The translations under genes and the position numbers were made by a program. Under the pieces are notes generated by a model. It searched no databases and was not told the DNA's origin. It was given only the letters and a program-made list of their open reading frames with translations. Positions 10,501 to 17,581 of a DNA stretch of 64,000 nt are shown here, piece after piece. The stretch covers positions 256,001 through 320,000 of the forward strand of contig CP010425.1 of the NCBI GenBank assembly GCA_000830295.1, in the 5' to 3' direction. This DNA comes from an archaeon GW2011_AR15 (GTDB lineage Archaea; Nanobdellota; Nanobdellia; Woesearchaeales; GW2011-AR15). Numbering within the stretch: the stretch's first letter is position 1; each line of letters opens with the position of its first letter.

Positions 10501-10563
10501 TGCCTCAGTATAGCAAACTGAAAGTTTGCTTATCTGAGATTTTGTTTAAAAAATGCCTCAGTA
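10501..10563 (+). repeat. Duplicated tRNA 5' end (TGCCTCAGTA x2, 53 bp apart) around a GAA-loop hairpin
   Basis: Copies at 10501-10510 and 10554-10563; perfect stem AGCAAACT-GAA-AGTTTGCT at 10512-10530. Confidence 0.85.
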
Positions 10564-10642
10564 GCTTAGCAGGTGGAGCGGTCGGCTGTTAACACCTATG
10601 AAAGAAACCGACAGGTCACCAGTTCAAATCTGGTCTGAGGCG
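10555..10642 (+). tRNA. tRNA-Asn(GTT) with 15-nt intron at 37/38 (10592-10606)
   Basis: Acceptor GCCTCAG/CTGAGGC, D arm GCTT/GAGC, anticodon stem GTCGG/CCGAC with CT-GTT-A, T arm ACCAG-TTCAAAT-CTGGT; 73 nt mature; CCA not encoded. Confidence 0.95.
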
Positions 10643-10729
10643 CTTTTTTTTCTATGTGGGCTTGAACGAAGTGAAACCCACCTGTTTCGTTCAACCATTT
10701 CTTAAAGGGTTGGTCTGAGGCGCTTTTTT
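10631..10729 (+). repeat. Duplicated tRNA 3' end (19-bp TGGTCTGAGGCGCTTTTTT, 80 bp apart) flanking a structured 61-bp insert
   Basis: Identical copies at 10631-10649 and 10711-10729; internal inverted repeats GTGGG/CCCAC and TTGAACGAA/TTCGTTCAA. Confidence 0.9.
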
Positions 10730-10730
10730 C

Positions 10731-11366
10731 CTAGCAGTTTATCCTGTTTGGCTCTCCCACAGTGCACACTATCCTGTCATTTGAGACTACATAAGAATCA
10801 ATATTTTGGTCGTCTATCTTGTTTTTGCAGCATATGTTGTTTGCTGAAGTCTGCACTATAGTCTCGTGCCTTCCAACAAGCTCCTGGTAATCTGCTTTCA
10901 GCTGGTTCAGCTCTACCTCTGCCTGGCTCCTGTTCTCCTGGTATCTCCTCTCCACCTCTGTCATGTTCCTGCTGTATTCTGACTGCAGCTGCTCTATATC
11001 AGACAGAAGCTTCAGGTTTGCTGACTGGCACAGGAAGGTCCTGTTTTTCTCATTTCTCAGCTCTGCAACAGTCTCATTGTTCACTATCCTGCAGCTTTCA
11101 AGCTGCGTCTCGGCAAAAAGCACGTCTGATTTCAGCGTGTCAAGCTCGCTCATTATGTTTTCCACATCCAGGCCAATCCTCTCAAAATCTTTTGACAGCC
11201 TGTAACCTATGAATGCCGGCCTGATTATTATGATCATTATAAGAACAAGGACTATAAGAAGAATGATGGCAAGGCTTATGTGGTGGTGATGCACAGCCAC
11301 ATGCGTCCGCCTCTTAAGCGGCTGCATTGGCGGTACTGGTCCACTTGTTTTCTTGATTGGTTCCAC
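10731..11366 (-). CDS. Membrane-anchored coiled-coil protein
   Basis: N-terminal TM helix after a His cluster, long heptad region, Cys-containing C-terminus; GTG start. Confidence 0.8.
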   Translation of the reverse strand: MEPIKKTSGPVPPMQPLKRRTHVAVHHHHISLAIILLIVLVLIMIIIIRPAFIGYRLSKDFERIGLDVENIMSELDTLKSDVLFAETQLESCRIVNNETVAELRNEKNRTFLCQSANLKLLSDIEQLQSEYSRNMTEVERRYQENRSQAEVELNQLKADYQELVGRHETIVQTSANNICCKNKIDDQNIDSYVVSNDRIVCTVGEPNRINC

Positions 11367-11415
11367 ACAGAATCACTAGATTATCCTGTATATTTCCACT
11401 ATATAAATCTTCTCT

Positions 11416-13611
11416 CTATCCTGTCAGGACCAGGCCGGAAACGACTGTAGCTGCAATTATGTTGAACATCATTATGACAGCGAATGCTATTGCGCTGTAG
11501 AGGACTCCGCTCTTTCTTATGAAATTGCCGAGCATAAATCTCTCATTCAGCGGGTCATATCCGTTTTCTATTGTATTGAGCATTGTTGTAAGAAGATATG
11601 TTATCTGGACGACATAGATGCCGACAACTATCTGGAAATAGAAGGTAGGGATGCTGTCGCTGAAAAGCTCAAGAAGCCCTGTTGTTGTTCCTGCGACATT
11701 TGAGCTTGAGAATGATGTTACCTGGTTGCCGAGCGTGATAAGGATCGTAGTTATCATGGAGGTAAGCCCTATGACAATCCCTGAGATAAGCGGTGCCAGG
11801 AAATTTATCTGCGAGCGCATGCTGCTGGTTATCTCTGACATCAGGTCCTTAAGCCTCTCATCCACCCTGTGCATCTCCTTTATGTATGTGGAGATGTTTA
11901 TGAGGGACTGCGATGCTATCTCTGGCCCTTTTTTTGCGCTCTCGACGAAAACCTTCATTGAGCTTTCTATAAGTGCAGAGGGGAACTTTGTTATTGCCCC
12001 GTGCTTCGGGTCAAATATTGCGTCCTCGACGCCCATGCCTAGAGTGCTGAGGTTCGTTGTCACCAGGTCAAAAAACTGCCCTGATTTTGTGCCTTCCATT
12101 ATGTGCGAGACCTTGCTGAAGGCTATCTCTGCAGGCAGGCCGTCTCCGATCCTGTTTCCCAGCTGGAATATCGCAGCTGCAAACTCGTTCTCAAGTGCTT
12201 TTGTCTCCGCCCTTATCTTAACAAGCTTCTTTGTCCTTGCCGTGAAATAGAACGCCATTGCAAGCGCCAGCCCAAGAGGGATGAATATGCTTATCAGTGT
12301 CGCGCCAAGGCCATAAGGCCCGAGCAGCTGAGTGCCGTCCTTGCTCTCTTTGTATCCCAGGAAGGTAAATTTTGCTGCCTTCAGGGCTTCCGGGTCTGTC
12401 GTGCTTATTACCTGCCATTTCTCATTTACAATGATATCAAAGAACTGCCCGCTGACTGTGGAGGTAAGATGAAGGATAAGGGGCATAATTCCTATTACAA
12501 GAAATACAAGGAATATTATTGCTGAAATCCATATCGGGTTGAATGATACCTCTTTTTTCCCGAGCTTCATGGTAAGCATCGTATGCTTTTTCAGCTCCGG
12601 GTTGACTTCCGTGATATCAGCCTGGCCATAGCCTGTCGGCCTTGTTGAAAGTATTTTCTTGCCAAGATACCAGACACTAAGGGGAAGGAAGACATTGTAA
12701 AGCACAGAAATATGGTACCACTGCACATTCTCCATGAAGCTCACAACAAGAGGAAGGATAACAAGCCCGAGTATAGGCAGTATCACCCCAAGCATGTGGA
12801 GCATTGTTATAGGCTCTTTCAGGTCCTGGGCAAAATGGAACATTTTTTCATATGTAGCCTCAAGTATAAGTGAAAGCGATTTTTCAAGCGCTTCCTGCCT
12901 CTTCTTCTCTGACGGCTCCAGCAGGGAAGACTGGATAAGGTGTATGCTCTCGACAAACTCAGGTGTGTATTTTTTCCACCTGCTGAGGTAATCGTCAAGG
13001 CTGTCCTTCACGGATTTGAACTTGGAGGACTCTACATTCCACATTATTTTCTTGAAATCAAGGGACAGGGGTGGCGAAATGTGGTCAGATGCGAATTTTA
13101 TGGCCAGCTCAAGGTTGGAAGTGTGCCTCATGTACGAGACAATATAGAACACGGAAAGCACCATCTGGTTGCTTGCCTTCAGCCTCCAGTTGTTTGCCAG
13201 GAGCATCGGAAGTGTTGTAAGCGGCACTATAAGTATAAGCCCGAAAATAATGAACATGAACATAAAGAACATTGATGACCCTGGCGCAATCAGGGAGAAA
13301 AGAGTAAACGAAAGAGCTACGCCAAGAAGTATGAATGCTATCGGGAATAGTATTGCAAATGAGGTCACTCCCGCTGGGGTTGTGTTAAGGTGGCAGGTCT
13401 CAAGCGCTTCCTGCAGCTCAGCCAGCTTTTTTTTGTCAGGGCTCAGCTTTACAATATTTGAGCAGAAATTGCAGGCCTTCTCGTACAGGGTAAACCTGCC
13501 GGGCATCACCTCGCTCCTGAACTGGTTGTACTCCTCTGACTTTACGGACTCTGAATGAGATTCTGTAAATGCCTTTATTTCCTTTTTTAGCTCGTCCTCG
13601 CTAAGAACCAT
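11416..13611 (-). CDS. Type IV pilus/T2SS F-family membrane platform protein (fused TadB/TadC, FlaJ-like)
   Basis: 731 aa; two cytoplasmic domains (SNLELAIKF..., GLPAEIAF...) each followed by TM helices. Confidence 0.75.
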   Translation of the reverse strand: MVLSEDELKKEIKAFTESHSESVKSEEYNQFRSEVMPGRFTLYEKACNFCSNIVKLSPDKKKLAELQEALETCHLNTTPAGVTSFAILFPIAFILLGVALSFTLFSLIAPGSSMFFMFMFIIFGLILIVPLTTLPMLLANNWRLKASNQMVLSVFYIVSYMRHTSNLELAIKFASDHISPPLSLDFKKIMWNVESSKFKSVKDSLDDYLSRWKKYTPEFVESIHLIQSSLLEPSEKKRQEALEKSLSLILEATYEKMFHFAQDLKEPITMLHMLGVILPILGLVILPLVVSFMENVQWYHISVLYNVFLPLSVWYLGKKILSTRPTGYGQADITEVNPELKKHTMLTMKLGKKEVSFNPIWISAIIFLVFLVIGIMPLILHLTSTVSGQFFDIIVNEKWQVISTTDPEALKAAKFTFLGYKESKDGTQLLGPYGLGATLISIFIPLGLALAMAFYFTARTKKLVKIRAETKALENEFAAAIFQLGNRIGDGLPAEIAFSKVSHIMEGTKSGQFFDLVTTNLSTLGMGVEDAIFDPKHGAITKFPSALIESSMKVFVESAKKGPEIASQSLINISTYIKEMHRVDERLKDLMSEITSSMRSQINFLAPLISGIVIGLTSMITTILITLGNQVTSFSSSNVAGTTTGLLELFSDSIPTFYFQIVVGIYVVQITYLLTTMLNTIENGYDPLNERFMLGNFIRKSGVLYSAIAFAVIMMFNIIAATVVSGLVLTG

Positions 13612-13713
13612 AATTTACCTCTTTTTTCAGAGATAAATCAAAGCACTCTACTATAAAAGGGTTTCGAATCAGCAGCGAAACGTTTTAATATAAACAGCTA
13701 ATTTCACGTACAG

Positions 13714-14175
13714 ATGAACCTGAAAGAAACATACGGGAAACTTGAGAAAAAATACTCCCTGCCGGCATACTCTGAGCTGAACAGGGACTTTGACATTGAG
13801 GACATACTTCCTGAGACAGAAGTCATGCTCCAGAAAATAAGGGGAAAAATCACTGAGAAGCTTGAAGGCTACGCAGGGCTTATAGAATCTTTTGTCCAGC
13901 CTGACACAAACATGAAGGACATGTACGAGGCAAGGCACATGGATGATGCAGACAGGGAGCATGCCTATGCTTTGTTCAAGAAGATTATGCACATAATAAG
14001 GAGATCTGCCCTTACTGCCATCCAGAACACAGAGGAAGGCAATGCTTCATTCATAAAAGAATCATTCAGTGAATGGAATGCTCTTAAGAAGCAGATAGAG
14101 CCGCACATCAGGAAGCTGGAGGAAATCTGGAAAAAAGAGACAGATATAAAAACGGATCTGAGTTATTTTGGATAG
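13714..14175 (+). CDS. Hypothetical protein
   Basis: 153-aa helical ORF ending YFG, directly upstream of adk. Confidence 0.8.
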   Translation: MNLKETYGKLEKKYSLPAYSELNRDFDIEDILPETEVMLQKIRGKITEKLEGYAGLIESFVQPDTNMKDMYEARHMDDADREHAYALFKKIMHIIRRSALTAIQNTEEGNASFIKESFSEWNALKKQIEPHIRKLEEIWKKETDIKTDLSYFG

Positions 14176-14182
14176 TGAACTT

Positions 14183-14737
14183 ATGATGAGACTGGTGTTT
14201 TTGGGGCCTCCGGGCGCAGGAAAAGGGACACAGGCAAAAATACTTTCAGAGAGCCTTAATATCCCCCACATATCAACAGGCGATATCTTCAGGTATAATA
14301 TCGAGAACAAGACAGAGCTCGGAAGAGAGGCATCCGAGTTCATGAACAGGGGATTTCTTGTGCCTGACAAGATAACAAACGCCATGGTCCTCAACAGGCT
14401 CAGCATGGACGACTGCAAAAACGGATATATTCTGGACGGCTATCCAAGGACAATCAACCAGGCTGAATTTCTCGACAGCATGCAGGAAATCAATCATGCA
14501 GTCTATTTTTACCTGAGGGATGAAATTGCAATTGAAAGGCTGATGAGCAGGGCCAAGCAGGAATCAAGAAGCGATGACAGCCCCGAAGTCATAAAGAACA
14601 GGCTGCAGGTATACAAAGAGCAGACACAACCGCTTATTAACTACTATAAAGAAAGAGGTACACTTCTGGAGATTGACGCAGGAGCGGGTATAACCATGAT
14701 AAGCAAGGATGTCAGAAGGGCACTGAAGCTATCCTAA
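14183..14737 (+). CDS. adk: Adenylate kinase (bacterial-type, short LID)
   Basis: GPPGAGKGTQ, HISTGDIFR, LDGYPRT, RSDD. Confidence 0.96.
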   Translation: MMRLVFLGPPGAGKGTQAKILSESLNIPHISTGDIFRYNIENKTELGREASEFMNRGFLVPDKITNAMVLNRLSMDDCKNGYILDGYPRTINQAEFLDSMQEINHAVYFYLRDEIAIERLMSRAKQESRSDDSPEVIKNRLQVYKEQTQPLINYYKERGTLLEIDAGAGITMISKDVRRALKLS

Positions 14738-14749
14738 CTTATTTGAAGA

Positions 14750-15196
14750 ATGAAAATACTTTTTGTCTGCAAGGGCAACATGTTCAGGAGCCAGCTGGCA
14801 GAATATTTCTTCAATAAATCCGCAAAAAAACACAGGGCAGAAAGCGCAGGGATAAACGCAAGGTATGCTGGCATCAGGCTTTCAAGGCTTTACCACATTG
14901 AGAGCGGAAGGGCGAAGGACGCCGAGAAGTTCATTGCAGAGCTTGATAAGGAAATGCTTGAAAAAGTGCCGAAGCAGCTTACCCCTGAGATGATTGATGC
15001 GTCTGACAAGGTTGTTGTGCTGCTGGAATCAGAAAAGGAGATGCCGGATTACCTGAAAAATTCTCCAAAGCTGATATTCTGGAAGATGATAGACGGGATA
15101 AAGGAAGATGGAAGCACAAGGCCTTATGGTGAGCTGTGCAGGATAAGGGAGCAGATAAAGGAAAAAGTAGAGAAGCTTGTGAAAAGCATCAGCTGA
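14750..15196 (+). CDS. Low-molecular-weight phosphatase/arsenate reductase family protein
   Basis: ILFVCKGNMFRSQLAE (CX5R), SAG, KQLT. Confidence 0.9.
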   Translation: MKILFVCKGNMFRSQLAEYFFNKSAKKHRAESAGINARYAGIRLSRLYHIESGRAKDAEKFIAELDKEMLEKVPKQLTPEMIDASDKVVVLLESEKEMPDYLKNSPKLIFWKMIDGIKEDGSTRPYGELCRIREQIKEKVEKLVKSIS

Positions 15197-16178
15197 AAAT
15201 CCTCTTTATAACAATTGTTGCATAGCTCCCCTTCCCTAATTCAAACTTAATTGTGCATTTCTTCATGCCGTCATTAAGCTCATCTTTTTCCAGCTCCCCA
15301 ACCTCCATGTTCCTGACTTCTGCAGCTAAATTTCTTGAAGCGCCCATCGGCGTCACATCTGGGATGTTCCTTATAACAAAATCCCTCAGTTCAAGCCCGC
15401 TTCTTTCAAGGGTTTCCTGATAAAGTTTTTCAATTTCCTGGTCTGTGAACTCGGTATCAAACGCAAGGAGCGGGATCTCTATATCCTTTATTTTCTTACG
15501 GGGGAAAATAAATCTGCCGTGCCTGTATTCAGCTTCAGAGAAATTTTCTGAATGGTGCTTTACATATCCTGCAGCAACCTCATTCCACAGGTAGCTCTGC
15601 ACAGCATGGAGGTATAGCTTTAGTATCTTGTGCGGAATCTTCCTTATTGCTCCGATAAAATCATTTTTGCTGTGCAGAAGATGCATGCTTACTTCAGGAT
15701 GGTCCATCATTGACGCTGCCTTTTCAAAATTTTTTTTCAGGATTGCAAGTCCGATTTCAAGGTTGTTTCTGCCGAAGCGCTGCTCGCCAAAATAATTTAT
15801 TATGGAATCCGTCTTCTCGGGTGGCCTCTTTATTTTTCTTATAGTTATTGTAAATTTATTTCCTCTCAGGTCGCCAAGGGAGATGGGTTTTCTGCCATGG
15901 CCGGCAATCTTTGTTTTGTATCTGCCGAAATCTTTGTCCGCTATCTCCCCTTTTACAGAGCAATACTGCCTTGTAACTGCGTTCCTGTCTTTTGTCCCTG
16001 CATAGCTGAAATTTTTTCTCGGAATCCTGAAATCTGCAGAAAGCTCCTGTATAGCTTCCTCTGTGTTGCATGCTTTTTTTTCCAGGAGAAAATAGGTATA
16101 CGGGCCTTCACCGCCAAAATCATGCAGTGGAATCTCCTCTACTATAAAATCCTCAGGGATTTGTTTTATCATGCGCAT
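15189..16178 (-). CDS. truD: tRNA pseudouridine(13) synthase TruD
   Basis: PEDFIVEE, YAGTKDRNAVTRQ, GNKFTI, NYFGEQRFG, FELGKGSYAT. Confidence 0.96.
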   Translation of the reverse strand: MRMIKQIPEDFIVEEIPLHDFGGEGPYTYFLLEKKACNTEEAIQELSADFRIPRKNFSYAGTKDRNAVTRQYCSVKGEIADKDFGRYKTKIAGHGRKPISLGDLRGNKFTITIRKIKRPPEKTDSIINYFGEQRFGRNNLEIGLAILKKNFEKAASMMDHPEVSMHLLHSKNDFIGAIRKIPHKILKLYLHAVQSYLWNEVAAGYVKHHSENFSEAEYRHGRFIFPRKKIKDIEIPLLAFDTEFTDQEIEKLYQETLERSGLELRDFVIRNIPDVTPMGASRNLAAEVRNMEVGELEKDELNDGMKKCTIKFELGKGSYATIVIKRIFS

Positions 16179-16225
16179 CTGTAAAGGCAATATTTATATA
16201 AAAATAAGCTTTTGGTAATATTGTA

Positions 16226-16765
16226 ATGAATGAGAATGTCAGGAAGGAGATAATAGATGTCCTGAAGGGATCAATAAAGATTGTAAAGCAGGACCAGTTA
16301 TTCAGGTTAAGGGAGCTGAGCGACCGCATTATCGAGACTGCTGCTGTCTACCAGGACAGGGAGTCAATAGGCGTTGCGGTGCTGATATATTCTTTGTCAA
16401 AAATATACAGGAGCAAAGATGATGTCGATAATTTTGTGCTCCCGCATCTTGCAGATGCCCTGAAAGCCCTGGAAAAGGATAATCTTGTAAGGTATGAAGC
16501 AGAGATAGACCATATAATAAAAGATATGTCTGAGAAAGACAGCAAGACCAAATTCTATGTTCAGGAAGTTCTCCAGAGGGCTGAAATAAAAAAGGGCTCA
16601 AAAATGTTTGAGCAGGGAATTTCAATGGGTCAGGCTGCGGAAGCCCTTAATGTCTCTATCTGGGACCTTATGGATTATGTCGGCAAGACAAGGATAATTG
16701 ATGAATTCGGCCACAAAACTAATGTAAAGAGCAAGATTGAATTTACAAGGAGGCTTTTCAAATGA
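16226..16765 (+). CDS. Hypothetical protein with C-terminal UPF0175-like HTH
   Basis: GISMGQAAEALNVSIWDLMDY resembles the UPF0175 antitoxin HTH; upstream of a PIN gene. Confidence 0.75.
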   Translation: MNENVRKEIIDVLKGSIKIVKQDQLFRLRELSDRIIETAAVYQDRESIGVAVLIYSLSKIYRSKDDVDNFVLPHLADALKALEKDNLVRYEAEIDHIIKDMSEKDSKTKFYVQEVLQRAEIKKGSKMFEQGISMGQAAEALNVSIWDLMDYVGKTRIIDEFGHKTNVKSKIEFTRRLFK

Positions 16766-16776
16766 AGGCATTAGTC

Positions 16777-16881
16777 TTTGACACTTTGACGAAGGAAAAG
16801 TCCGAAAATCAGGAGGAGTATCTATGATACGAGGAGTGATTTTTGACACTTTGACGAAGGAAAAGTCCAAAAATCAGGAGG
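16777..16881 (+). repeat. Two 40-bp direct repeats (period 65 bp) carrying a hairpin and AGGAGG RBS, interleaved with alternative PIN-gene starts
   Basis: TTTGACACTTTGACGAAGGAAAAGTCC(G/A)AAAATCAGGAGG at 16777-16816 and 16842-16881, one mismatch. Confidence 0.95.
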
Positions 16882-16888
16882 GCATATC

Positions 16889-17581
16889 ATGGTAAAAGCC
16901 CTTGTTTTCGATACCGGCCCTCTTATCTCCCTTGCACTGAACAATCTTCTCTGGGTGCTTAAGCCCCTGAAAGAGAAGTTTGGCGGAGAATTCTATATTA
17001 CCCCCTCTGTGAAAAAGGAGGTTGTAGAGAAGCCGCTGACAACAAAGAGATACAAGTTTGAGGCCCTCCAGGTCTTAAGCCTTGTGGAGACAGGAGTGCT
17101 GAAAGTCTATGATTCCCCTGATCTCAGGAAAGAAGCCCTTTCGCTGCTGGATTCAGCCAACAGCCTATTCATGGCAGACGGGAATTATGTAAAAAATGTG
17201 CAGTACGCTGAGATAGAATCCGTCATGGCTGCAAAGCTTCTTCATGCTGATGCCGTGGTGGTAGATGAATTCATAACAAGGGCGCTTCTGGAAAATCCTG
17301 AAGCTGTTGAGCAAAGAATGGAAAAAAGGTTTCACAGGAACATAGATGCTGACAAAAAAAATATAGACGCGTTTTCCAGGCGGGTGTCAGGTATAAATGT
17401 TATAAGGTCATTTGAGCTGATTGCTGTAGCCTACGAGAAAGGATTATTCAGAGAGTATTACCTGAAGCTTGACAACCCGAAAGAAACCCTGCTTGACGGG
17501 CTGCTGTGGGGGCTAAAGCTCAACGGCTGCTCTGTAACTGAGCAGGAAATAGCTGAAATCAAGAAATTAGAGGGCTTTTAG
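16889..17581 (+). CDS. PIN-domain protein (DUF3368/VapC-like)
   Basis: VFDTGPLI, ITPSV.KE, AEIES, VVDE acidic PIN motifs. Confidence 0.85.
   Translation: MVKALVFDTGPLISLALNNLLWVLKPLKEKFGGEFYITPSVKKEVVEKPLTTKRYKFEALQVLSLVETGVLKVYDSPDLRKEALSLLDSANSLFMADGNYVKNVQYAEIESVMAAKLLHADAVVVDEFITRALLENPEAVEQRMEKRFHRNIDADKKNIDAFSRRVSGINVIRSFELIAVAYEKGLFREYYLKLDNPKETLLDGLLWGLKLNGCSVTEQEIAEIKKLEGF

Follow-up and report, generated by a model that had tools for sequence, protein, structure and literature searches.

MITEs (miniature inverted-repeat transposable elements), repetitive extragenic palindromic sequences (REP/REPIN) with their RAYT transposases, and hairpin elements derived from IS200/IS605 are small, non-coding, hairpin-forming units that occur in multiple copies and are presumably moved in trans. 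IS200/IS605 elements insert beside a target of 4–5 nucleotides (nt) without duplicating it; casposons and Cas1-Cas2 integrate at the 3′ ends of tRNA or protein genes with a long target duplication. Archaeal tRNA genes carry introns that are removed by the splicing endonuclease, and intron transposition is said to take place in tRNA genes of the Thermoproteales. According to PMC9897764, integrative elements of 9–23 kb in tRNA genes leave partial tRNA genes, and the same source describes the 21.4-kb PYG1 island of Pyrococcus yayanosii with its 44-bp repeats. The route by which tRNA introns arrived in Asgard archaea is said to remain open (bioRxiv 10.64898/2026.10.13.758758, 2026). Here, a stretch of 64,000 nt from the archaeon GW2011_AR15 (bases 256001–320000 of contig CP010425.1, hereafter the window) was analyzed, in which short inserts next to second copies of gene ends are found on both sides of a tRNA-Asn gene (5′ leader, and site 1 at its 3′ end) and at the start of a gene for a protein of 230 amino acids (aa; site 2). 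A preliminary description had assigned all three to one candidate family of transposase-free elements defined by GAA-capped hairpins and presumably mobilized as single-stranded DNA by an HUH enzyme. A full-text search of the literature found no description of such inserts.

The genome is a single contig of 1,157,790 bases with 42.5% G+C. In the following, G000 denotes this genome, G001, G002 etc. denote relatives, L numbers are loci and C1 is the contig.

A Two-Hairpin Cassette at Duplicated tRNA Ends

The tRNA-Asn gene (Table 1) closes with a 19-nt stretch comprising the last 12 nt of the tRNA and 7 nt of trailer, of which an exact second copy follows 80 nt downstream, with 61 nt of insert between the two repeats (10631–10729). 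Among the 39 tRNA genes called by ARAGORN in the whole genome with introns allowed, the majority of which bear introns, 17 are accompanied by a downstream second copy of their own 3′ end (at least 12 of the last 14 nt, at +5 to +125), as opposed to 12 of 1478 mismatched tRNA/flank pairs (0.8%) in a control. Likewise, when the whole genome was scanned for exact direct repeats (minimum length 14 nt, spacing 20–400 nt), 61 pairs remained after low-complexity filtering, 15 of which are tRNA 3′ ends repeated 52–102 nt downstream, one adjoining a tRNA missed by ARAGORN.

The inserts behind 12 tRNAs can be aligned with one another. Because RNAalifold recovered only 5 pairs of hairpin 2 from an alignment of 21 copies, the structure was entered by hand and its pairs were counted. 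In this alignment, 79% of the cells are paired, compared to 35–41% when the partners are slid by 1–3 columns. Compensatory changes altering both sides occur at 13 of 18 pairs, and the observed covariation score was reached by none of 500 shuffles. The hairpin structure of the cassette is under selection. A covariance model built from the alignment with the two-hairpin structure supplied by hand (model R1) detects 26 copies in the genome at E≤1, including the 21 seeds, with site 1 as the best-scoring one. Together with the tRNA-end copies, this family bears out the preliminary description in that small inserts devoid of a transposase gene are bordered by a duplicated gene end and leave the gene intact.

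The cassette spans about 60–110 nt (typically about 78 nt) and is composed of two hairpins and a conserved linker. Its constant part is the linker plus hairpin 2. Hairpin 1 exists in four interchangeable forms, i. e. GA/GNA (11 of the 21 aligned copies), a perfect palindrome (4), a form with a GCATG-containing 3′ arm (4) and a GGACTAC-type stem (2), so that the GA/GAA hairpin does not define the family as had been assumed. The flanking repeats vary from 11 to 58 nt in this genome and its relatives; as each copy is bracketed by a piece of the local gene end, one complete gene remains. Shorter inserts (type B) behind tRNAs for Arg, Glu, Ser and Thr consist of the same GA-NN-GNRA-NN-GA core, closed by a stem for which the orphan tRNA copy itself supplies the 3′ arm. 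A third type of insert is seen behind tRNA-Thr(GGT) and tRNA-Pro(TGG) (G000:C1:24760–24850 and 1133376–1133480; also L102), in which an 8-bp stem of the ATAAGGGT type and a loop of 4–5 nt are followed by GTGG and the orphan tRNA end.

At site 1, hairpin 1 consists of a 5-bp stem, a bulged C, two T-A pairs, the tandem GA, 2 bp and the GAA loop; its thermodynamic fold on its own is weak (z=−1.5). The 3′ arm of hairpin 2 extends over the first 3 nt of the orphan copy. Only in this copy of the cassette (10643–10729), hairpin 1 has a 5′ half that could also pair with the linker and with the 5′ arm of hairpin 2, and an alternative long hairpin is predicted as a result. The insert is no bulge-helix-bulge intron by its location, since it is placed after the discriminator base and the T-run and thus outside the tRNA.

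A second copy of the gene end exists on the 5′ side of tRNA-Asn as well. An orphan copy of its first bases sits about 25 nt past an AT-rich, TATA-like box and, paired to an antisense bit, makes up the outer stem of the leader hairpin; the tRNA is thus nested between copies of both of its own ends. One hairpin arm pairs with the adjacent gene-end copy here, a feature noted for two cases in the preliminary description, and the same is seen in the type-B inserts. The layout recurs ahead of tRNA-Asn in G010 from another genus, where the copy follows the A-to-G change of G010 itself. The assignment of all three sites to one family stands for site 1 as a match of model R1, but neither the leader (10501–10552) nor site 2 (16762–16895) is matched at E≤1. 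The leader hairpin folds better than its shuffles (Table 1); the hairpin of site 2 folds no better than shuffled sequences (z=+0.89, 164 of 200 shuffles as good).

The GA core shared by sites 1 and 2 had been taken as a sign of kinship, which is not confirmed, as the generic motif stem-GA-N-GNA-N′-GA-stem lies at chance level genome-wide: it occurs 73, 28 and 15 times with outer stems of at least 2, 3 and 4 bp, respectively, compared to 54–71, 21–29 and 6–16 times in ten first-order Markov simulations. The proposed enrichment does apply within 120 nt of tRNA ends, where 9 motifs are found versus 1.0 expected from the area. These nine, a lower bound because the search pattern misses some copies, all obey the orientation rule given below. 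The GA core is a real recurrent module of tRNA-end inserts, and matches elsewhere such as site 2 carry no weight. The chance-level motif and the unstable hairpin of site 2 could be read as signs of mere chance resemblance or of an assembly artefact. As a general explanation this is exceedingly improbable in view of the frequency of tRNA-end copies over the control, the covariation, the 26 copies and the occurrence in 16 of 19 genomes of the family. Independent contigs from other samples also speak against it: a 764-nt contig of the public run X10 spans 10610–11373 with zero differences, and contigs of X6 (16174–17219) and X7 (15527–16979) reproduce site 2 without difference. Hence, chance and artefact are refuted for site 1 and for the duplications, which are not products of assembly; for the motif link between sites 1 and 2, chance still holds.

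Table 1. Features at the tRNA-Asn gene and at the start of the 230-aa gene; positions are counted from the first base of the window.
Feature	Position	Strand	Remarks
Orphan copy of tRNA-Asn 5′ end (base −1 and bases 1–9)	10501–10510	+	identical to 10554–10563
Leader hairpin, 35 nt, inner 8-bp stem and GAA loop	10504–10538	+	as DNA, −9.7 kcal/mol; z=−4.72, matched by none of 200 shuffles
tRNA-Asn(GTT), 15-nt intron at canonical position	10555–10642	+	Rfam tRNA, 55.6 bits; ARAGORN with introns
Gene-proximal copy of 19-nt direct repeat (tRNA 3′ end, C, T-run)	10631–10649	+	repeat family D3, 100%
Type-A cassette, best-scoring copy of the genome	10645–10722	+	model R1, 82.9 bits; E=1.7e-16 (genome search), 9.8e-18 (local search)
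Hairpin 1, GA/GNA variant	10656–10681	+	includes core 10662–10676 of the preliminary description; family alignment, covariation
Conserved linker, 8 nt	10682–10689	+	family alignment
Hairpin 2	10690–10713	+	as DNA, z=−4.21, matched by none of 200 shuffles; family alignment, covariation
Orphan copy of tRNA-Asn 3′ end and T-run	10711–10729	+	exact repeat of 10631–10649
Stub open reading frame (ORF) 1, 21 codons	16762–16827	+	ATG overlaps stop of upstream gene; first 8 residues match N-terminus of the gene at 16889
Two 40-nt blocks, 98% alike, 65 nt apart, tandem unit	16777–16816, 16842–16881	+	repeat family D1
Stub ORF 2, 23 codons	16824–16895	+	start and stop overlap neighbours (ATGA/ATGGTAA fashion)
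Conserved single-copy gene, 230 aa, with duplicated start	16889–17581	+	in 28 of 31 genomes searched; no Pfam match

Placement and Orientation of the Copies

Apart from one, all 26 matches in the genome could be placed. Fifteen lie on the 3′ side and two on the 5′ side of tRNA genes, one is an intron, one is found in the RNase P RNA and six at the ends of protein genes, namely at the start of dnaK, of a pilin-like gene and of one more gene, and at three gene stops. An extra copy after a Pth2-like gene was detected by nhmmer alone. Repeat lengths at protein genes are 39 nt for the start of dnaK, 21 and 37 nt for the pilin-like start, 30 nt for a repeat that ends exactly at a stop codon, and 42 nt; in relatives, lengths of 57 and 55 nt are reached. 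At the pilin-like gene (G000:C1:635421–635652), two different nested inserts give rise to three copies of the first codons, with the 21-nt and 37-nt repeats.

An antisense cassette makes the 80-nt intron of tRNA-Gly(CCC) (G000:C1:617016–617166), and the introns at position 37/38 of Thr and Arg tRNAs of relatives are likewise mostly antisense cassettes (with Gly(CCC), loci L071, L072, L091, L113, L117 and L028). The RNase P RNA, present in the genome at G000:C1:561703–562045 (L068, 24–396), has a P3 loop that is 83 nt larger, compared to 5 positions in the Rfam model; the extra stretch contains cassette linker plus hairpin 2, in sense, directly ahead of the conserved GAGGAAAGUCC.

Orientation was counted over the own genome, 50 copies of relatives (11+39) and two tRNA-Gly orthologues. 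Where the tRNA lies on the hairpin-1 side, 30 copies on the 3′ side are in sense, and 9 copies at the 5′ side as well as 7 introns are antisense, with zero exceptions; two copies with the tRNA on the hairpin-2 side lack a repeat, lie between converging genes and were counted as ambiguous. The seven assignable protein-gene copies of the own genome obey the same rule. Orientation is therefore strict, with hairpin 1 always toward the intact gene. One possible reason would be that the strand with the T-run stops transcription when read in a leader or intron: T-runs of at least 5 are present on the sense strand of 12 of 24 copies, mostly at the junction, and on the antisense strand of none of 24. 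Selection against termination inside leaders and introns may explain half of the orientation rule, but not the strict sense orientation at 3′ ends.

Several of these genes are awkward for tRNA finders. ARAGORN names for intron-bearing tRNAs are unreliable (e. g. “tRNA-Stop”, “tRNA-Phe aaa”) and are quoted here as printed. The tRNA-Asn gene (10555–10643) is misread as “tRNA-Stop (tta)” without introns, and a second intron-bearing tRNA (G000:C1:179899–179984) is still labelled tRNA-Stop with introns allowed. A tRNA gene at G000:C1:763052–763180 (minus strand) is not called at all; its 3′ end is visible, followed by a cassette and a 16-nt orphan copy. On the practical side, orphan gene ends and inflated introns thus mislead such programs, with ARAGORN having missed one tRNA and mis-named several.

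Filled and Empty Sites in Relatives

With model R1, the cassette was found throughout the genus (five of five genomes) and in most of the family (16 of 19 genomes); among the other families of the order, 8 of 41 genomes contain it. The own genome is the richest, with 23 copies under stricter filters; relatives with at least one copy have 1–10, and three genomes belonging to the family gave none. The same layout is met in ten metagenome contigs.

The comparison of filled and empty alleles that the preliminary description had called for was fruitful at three places, i. e. the tRNA-Gly(CCC) intron, the end of the Pth2-like gene and the start of the gene at site 2, each of which is empty in relatives. 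In tRNA-Gly(CCC), the intron contains the cassette in G000, G005 and G007, measures 13–17 nt in G026 and G002, and is absent from G016; G013 has an unrelated 51-nt intron. The cassette is located directly past the 5′ splice site, ahead of an apparent old short intron. The end of the Pth2-like gene is filled in G000 and G003 and empty at the other 13 loci examined, including four genomes of the same genus. The inserts of G000 and G003 are orthologous, as both share an odd insertion in hairpin 2. Because relatives hold the same sites empty, the cassette is an insertion. For tRNA-Asn itself, a DNA search recovered the gene in only 6 of 30 relatives, and at the 3 of 6 loci where ARAGORN called tRNA-Asn, the 3′ site is empty; site 1 hence has no close empty allele of its own.

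Taken together, these data suggest that a non-autonomous DNA insertion cassette, of which site 1 represents one copy, colonizes gene ends in a DPANN (Woesearchaeota-like) lineage, a reading that we favor and to which we attach about even chances. Insertion would occur at the DNA level by a target-duplicating step, conceivably the filling-in of a widely staggered break or copying primed by homology, with the enzymes presumably provided in trans by the host or by an unrecognized gene. Only those insertions would survive that leave a whole gene or that can be discarded by RNA processing. The copies observed are located in 5′ leaders, which RNase P removes, in 3′ trailers past the terminator, at the canonical intron site of tRNAs and in the P3 loop of the RNase P RNA.

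Second Copies of Protein Gene Ends

At protein genes, the identity blocks between the two copies of a gene end have sharp edges and pass into diverged tails that keep the frame and the stop codon. A codon comparison covered six sites with non-identical copies that allow an in-frame alignment; four belong to the own genome, the fifth to a relative and the sixth to a metagenome contig. L024 with its indel and the frameshifted part of L147 were excluded, and stop-for-stop was counted as synonymous. Of 26 differing codons, 18 are synonymous, compared to 4.0±1.9 expected by random substitution, and none of 20000 simulations reached 18. Judged by these sequences, the duplicated protein-gene ends are not simple fresh copies or plain scars, and both copies appear to be constrained.

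The polarity test, i. e. which of the two gene-end copies is foreign, worked at the Pth2-like locus only. There, 25–29 of 30 nt in the functional tails of G000 and G003 agree with the empty allele of G004. The orphan tails agree with each other in 16 of 30 nt, and their best match elsewhere is at most 22 of 30. Nonetheless, they retain the frame, the stop codon and residues typical of the family. The orphan of G000 moreover includes a 21-nt block identical to the working copy, which is absent in G003. This pattern fits neither a decaying duplication nor a simple crossover with an element bringing the working end.

These findings leave room for explanations other than insertion with subsequent decay. 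Conceivably, a single family that settles wherever bypass or excision at the RNA level is possible could act at the DNA level as the vehicle by which archaeal tRNA genes gain introns and these introns grow, and the second gene-end copies would then be not scars but sequences under coding constraint that alternate with the working end via reversible excision or splicing. We regard this extension as possible, if doubtful.

A miniature integrative element might produce similar sites, in that a small circle or fragment, composed of the hairpin pair and a short gene-end copy, enters the homologous end by Campbell-type recombination with the aid of host RadA or a XerA-like recombinase and can leave again, both copies being in use at times. 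The variable repeat lengths, the sharp-edged identity blocks with tails that keep frame and stop, and the synonymous bias all agree with such a process, which needs no transposase and for which one tyrosine recombinase is available. Yet, the polarity at the Pth2-like locus is opposite to the prediction of a crossover in the core, as the orphan tail is the divergent one. More than 20 different targets would furthermore demand illegitimate events, none of the copies was seen next to a remnant of a previous target, and two hairpin-2 patterns retrieved no free form from viral contigs. Overall, such an element seems rather unlikely. In 201 genomes of the order, a search for working tRNA ends that correspond to the orphan copy of tRNA-Ile gave 10 one-mismatch matches versus 5 for the reversed control, which is chance level.

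Alternatively, the inserts could be functional or spliceable modules, i. e. terminators or processing signals, or units that the splicing endonuclease removes from read-through RNA together with one gene-end copy, in which case both copies would be used. Apparent constraint on both copies of protein-gene ends would be expected from this, as would stub ORFs that keep their N-terminal residues in five genomes (see below), family members that serve as tRNA introns, and the layout of the tRNA-Asn leader in G010, whose copy tracks the change in the tRNA itself. However, the presence of the cassette is patchy even inside the genus, the T-run parts the gene from the cassette at 3′ sites, and the RNA from 5′ sites would be antisense to the 3′ form, which makes modules of this kind quite improbable.

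Site 2

At the start of the 230-aa gene, three successive starts encode MKALVFDT, MIRGVIFDT and MVKALVFDT, and each of the two 40-nt blocks carries an AGGAGG box. In eight relatives, the ATG of the gene directly follows the upstream stop. In G001, G002 and G003 of the same genus and in G009, a stub of about 8 codons precedes an insert of 27–40 nt with a ribosome-binding box and a new start. One more locus was counted with neither group. The stub ORFs keep the N-terminal residues in five genomes, and at site 2 the stub differs from the real start in 8 of 21 nt, all synonymous. The inserts look mutually homologous, with a perfect 25-nt repeat in G001 and a unit doubled in tandem in the own genome; the hairpin proposed for site 2 is not conserved among them. 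A hand count of polarity gave no clear direction. Site 2 is probably an older, unrelated-looking insert that was later doubled in tandem and follows a logic like that of site 1.

The surrounding region (16226–17581) contains two conserved genes without Pfam match (179 and 230 aa) that are neighbours in most relatives and normally arranged stop-to-start. The N-terminus of the 230-aa protein is PIN-domain-like by impression only. Further upstream, a 731-aa ORF on the minus strand (11416–13611) is also devoid of a Pfam match; metagenome contigs of other organisms stack on 12984–13240, so part of this ORF is widely conserved.

Enzymes and the Weighing of the Insertion Model

Six-frame family searches were conducted on the whole genome, whose completeness of 96.8% bears on the negative results. 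No match was obtained for the Y1 HUH transposase (PF01797), for which a control search was positive in 6 of 14 known genomes, nor for reverse transcriptase (PF00078), Cas1 (PF01867) or DDE_Tnp_1 (PF01609), with no search aimed at other DDE, IS110 or HUH Rep families. A TnpB-like match of 16.9 bits was below the cut-off and set aside, and a match resembling a resolvase was identified as a TrmB-type regulator and likewise set aside. The single clear tyrosine recombinase adjoins the genes for S27e and eIF2-alpha and corresponds in its domain composition to a housekeeping Xer-type (XerA-like) enzyme.

With neither Y1 HUH transposase nor reverse transcriptase or Cas1 in the genome, the proposed mobilization of single-stranded DNA by an HUH enzyme finds no support here. 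In that model, an IS200/IS605 TnpA or a RAYT recognizes the GA/GNA hairpins and targets are chosen by base pairing, with which the hairpins kept by covariation, the accumulation of tandem-GA motifs beside tRNA ends, and the pairing of the leader hairpin and type-B inserts with the adjacent gene-end copy would be consistent. Besides the missing Y1 match, the GA hairpin is found in barely more than half of the aligned copies, and 11–58 nt are duplicated here as opposed to the lack of target duplication in IS200/IS605, so that this route is very improbable. What stands of the preliminary description as a whole is the gene-end-restoring insert without a transposase gene; the GAA hairpin as its definer, the membership of site 2 and the HUH mechanism are either wrong or without support.

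The favored insertion cassette has difficulties of its own. The searches yielded no enzyme that moves it, and repeat lengths of 11–58 nt fit no known transposase. Neither an empty allele nor a circle junction was present in contigs of four public runs, in which rare alleles are not visible; a single contig of these runs displays one joint that “goes back 33” (10714 to 10682). The intron copies are without target duplication, the synonymous bias between gene-end copies is not predicted by a decaying target duplication, and the argument from termination for the orientation is weak, since only 4 of 24 copies have a T-run of at least 5 within the element body. All of these points weigh against the cassette as we describe it.

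The findings bear on how archaeal tRNA genes gain introns, leaders and fragments. Here, one sequence family has been caught in all states, i. e. behind tRNAs with a duplicated end, ahead of them, in a canonical intron with empty and short alleles, and at the ends of protein genes. From this, a model can be derived and tested in which introns are gained by insertion of DNA. The data also suggest that, in organisms with 1-Mb genomes, insertion can proceed without the transposase and integrase families searched. If the cassette does settle where RNA bypass or excision is possible, a concrete DNA-level route for the gain of archaeal tRNA introns would be at hand, which is still open according to 10.64898/2026.10.13.758758.

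Comparison with Known Systems

A non-LTR (non-long terminal repeat) or SINE-like (short interspersed nuclear element) retroelement is not indicated, with no reverse transcriptase in the genome. Casposons differ from the cassettes as well, given that the genome has no Cas1, that the duplication length is not fixed and that the inserts are far smaller. With MITEs, REPINs and IS200/IS605-like elements, the cassettes have in common that they are small, non-coding, multi-copy hairpin units. Unlike a classical MITE, however, they are without terminal inverted repeats (the repeat scan gave internal hairpins only) and without a fixed duplication length, and unlike all of these elements they are strictly tied to gene ends, in a genome in which Y1 and DDE_Tnp_1 were not found.

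Archaeal tRNA introns are matched by the cassette members at position 37/38 of Gly(CCC) and of Thr and Arg tRNAs of relatives, where one sequence family extends across tRNAs. In contrast to introns, most cassettes lie outside the mature tRNA, in the leader or behind the terminator, are bracketed by a gene-end duplicate and also occur at protein genes. The likeness to the integrative elements of tRNA genes, as far as they are portrayed in PMC9897764, extends further: a direct repeat of the tRNA end brackets the insert, one whole and one partial gene result so that the gene remains intact, the ends of protein genes serve as targets too, and a diverged version of the end can take the place of the second copy. 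Those elements span 9–23 kb and encode an integrase, whereas the cassettes comprise 60–110 nt without any gene. Within one 1.16-Mb genome that has one housekeeping-type tyrosine recombinase, the cassettes use more than 20 targets and both ends of genes.

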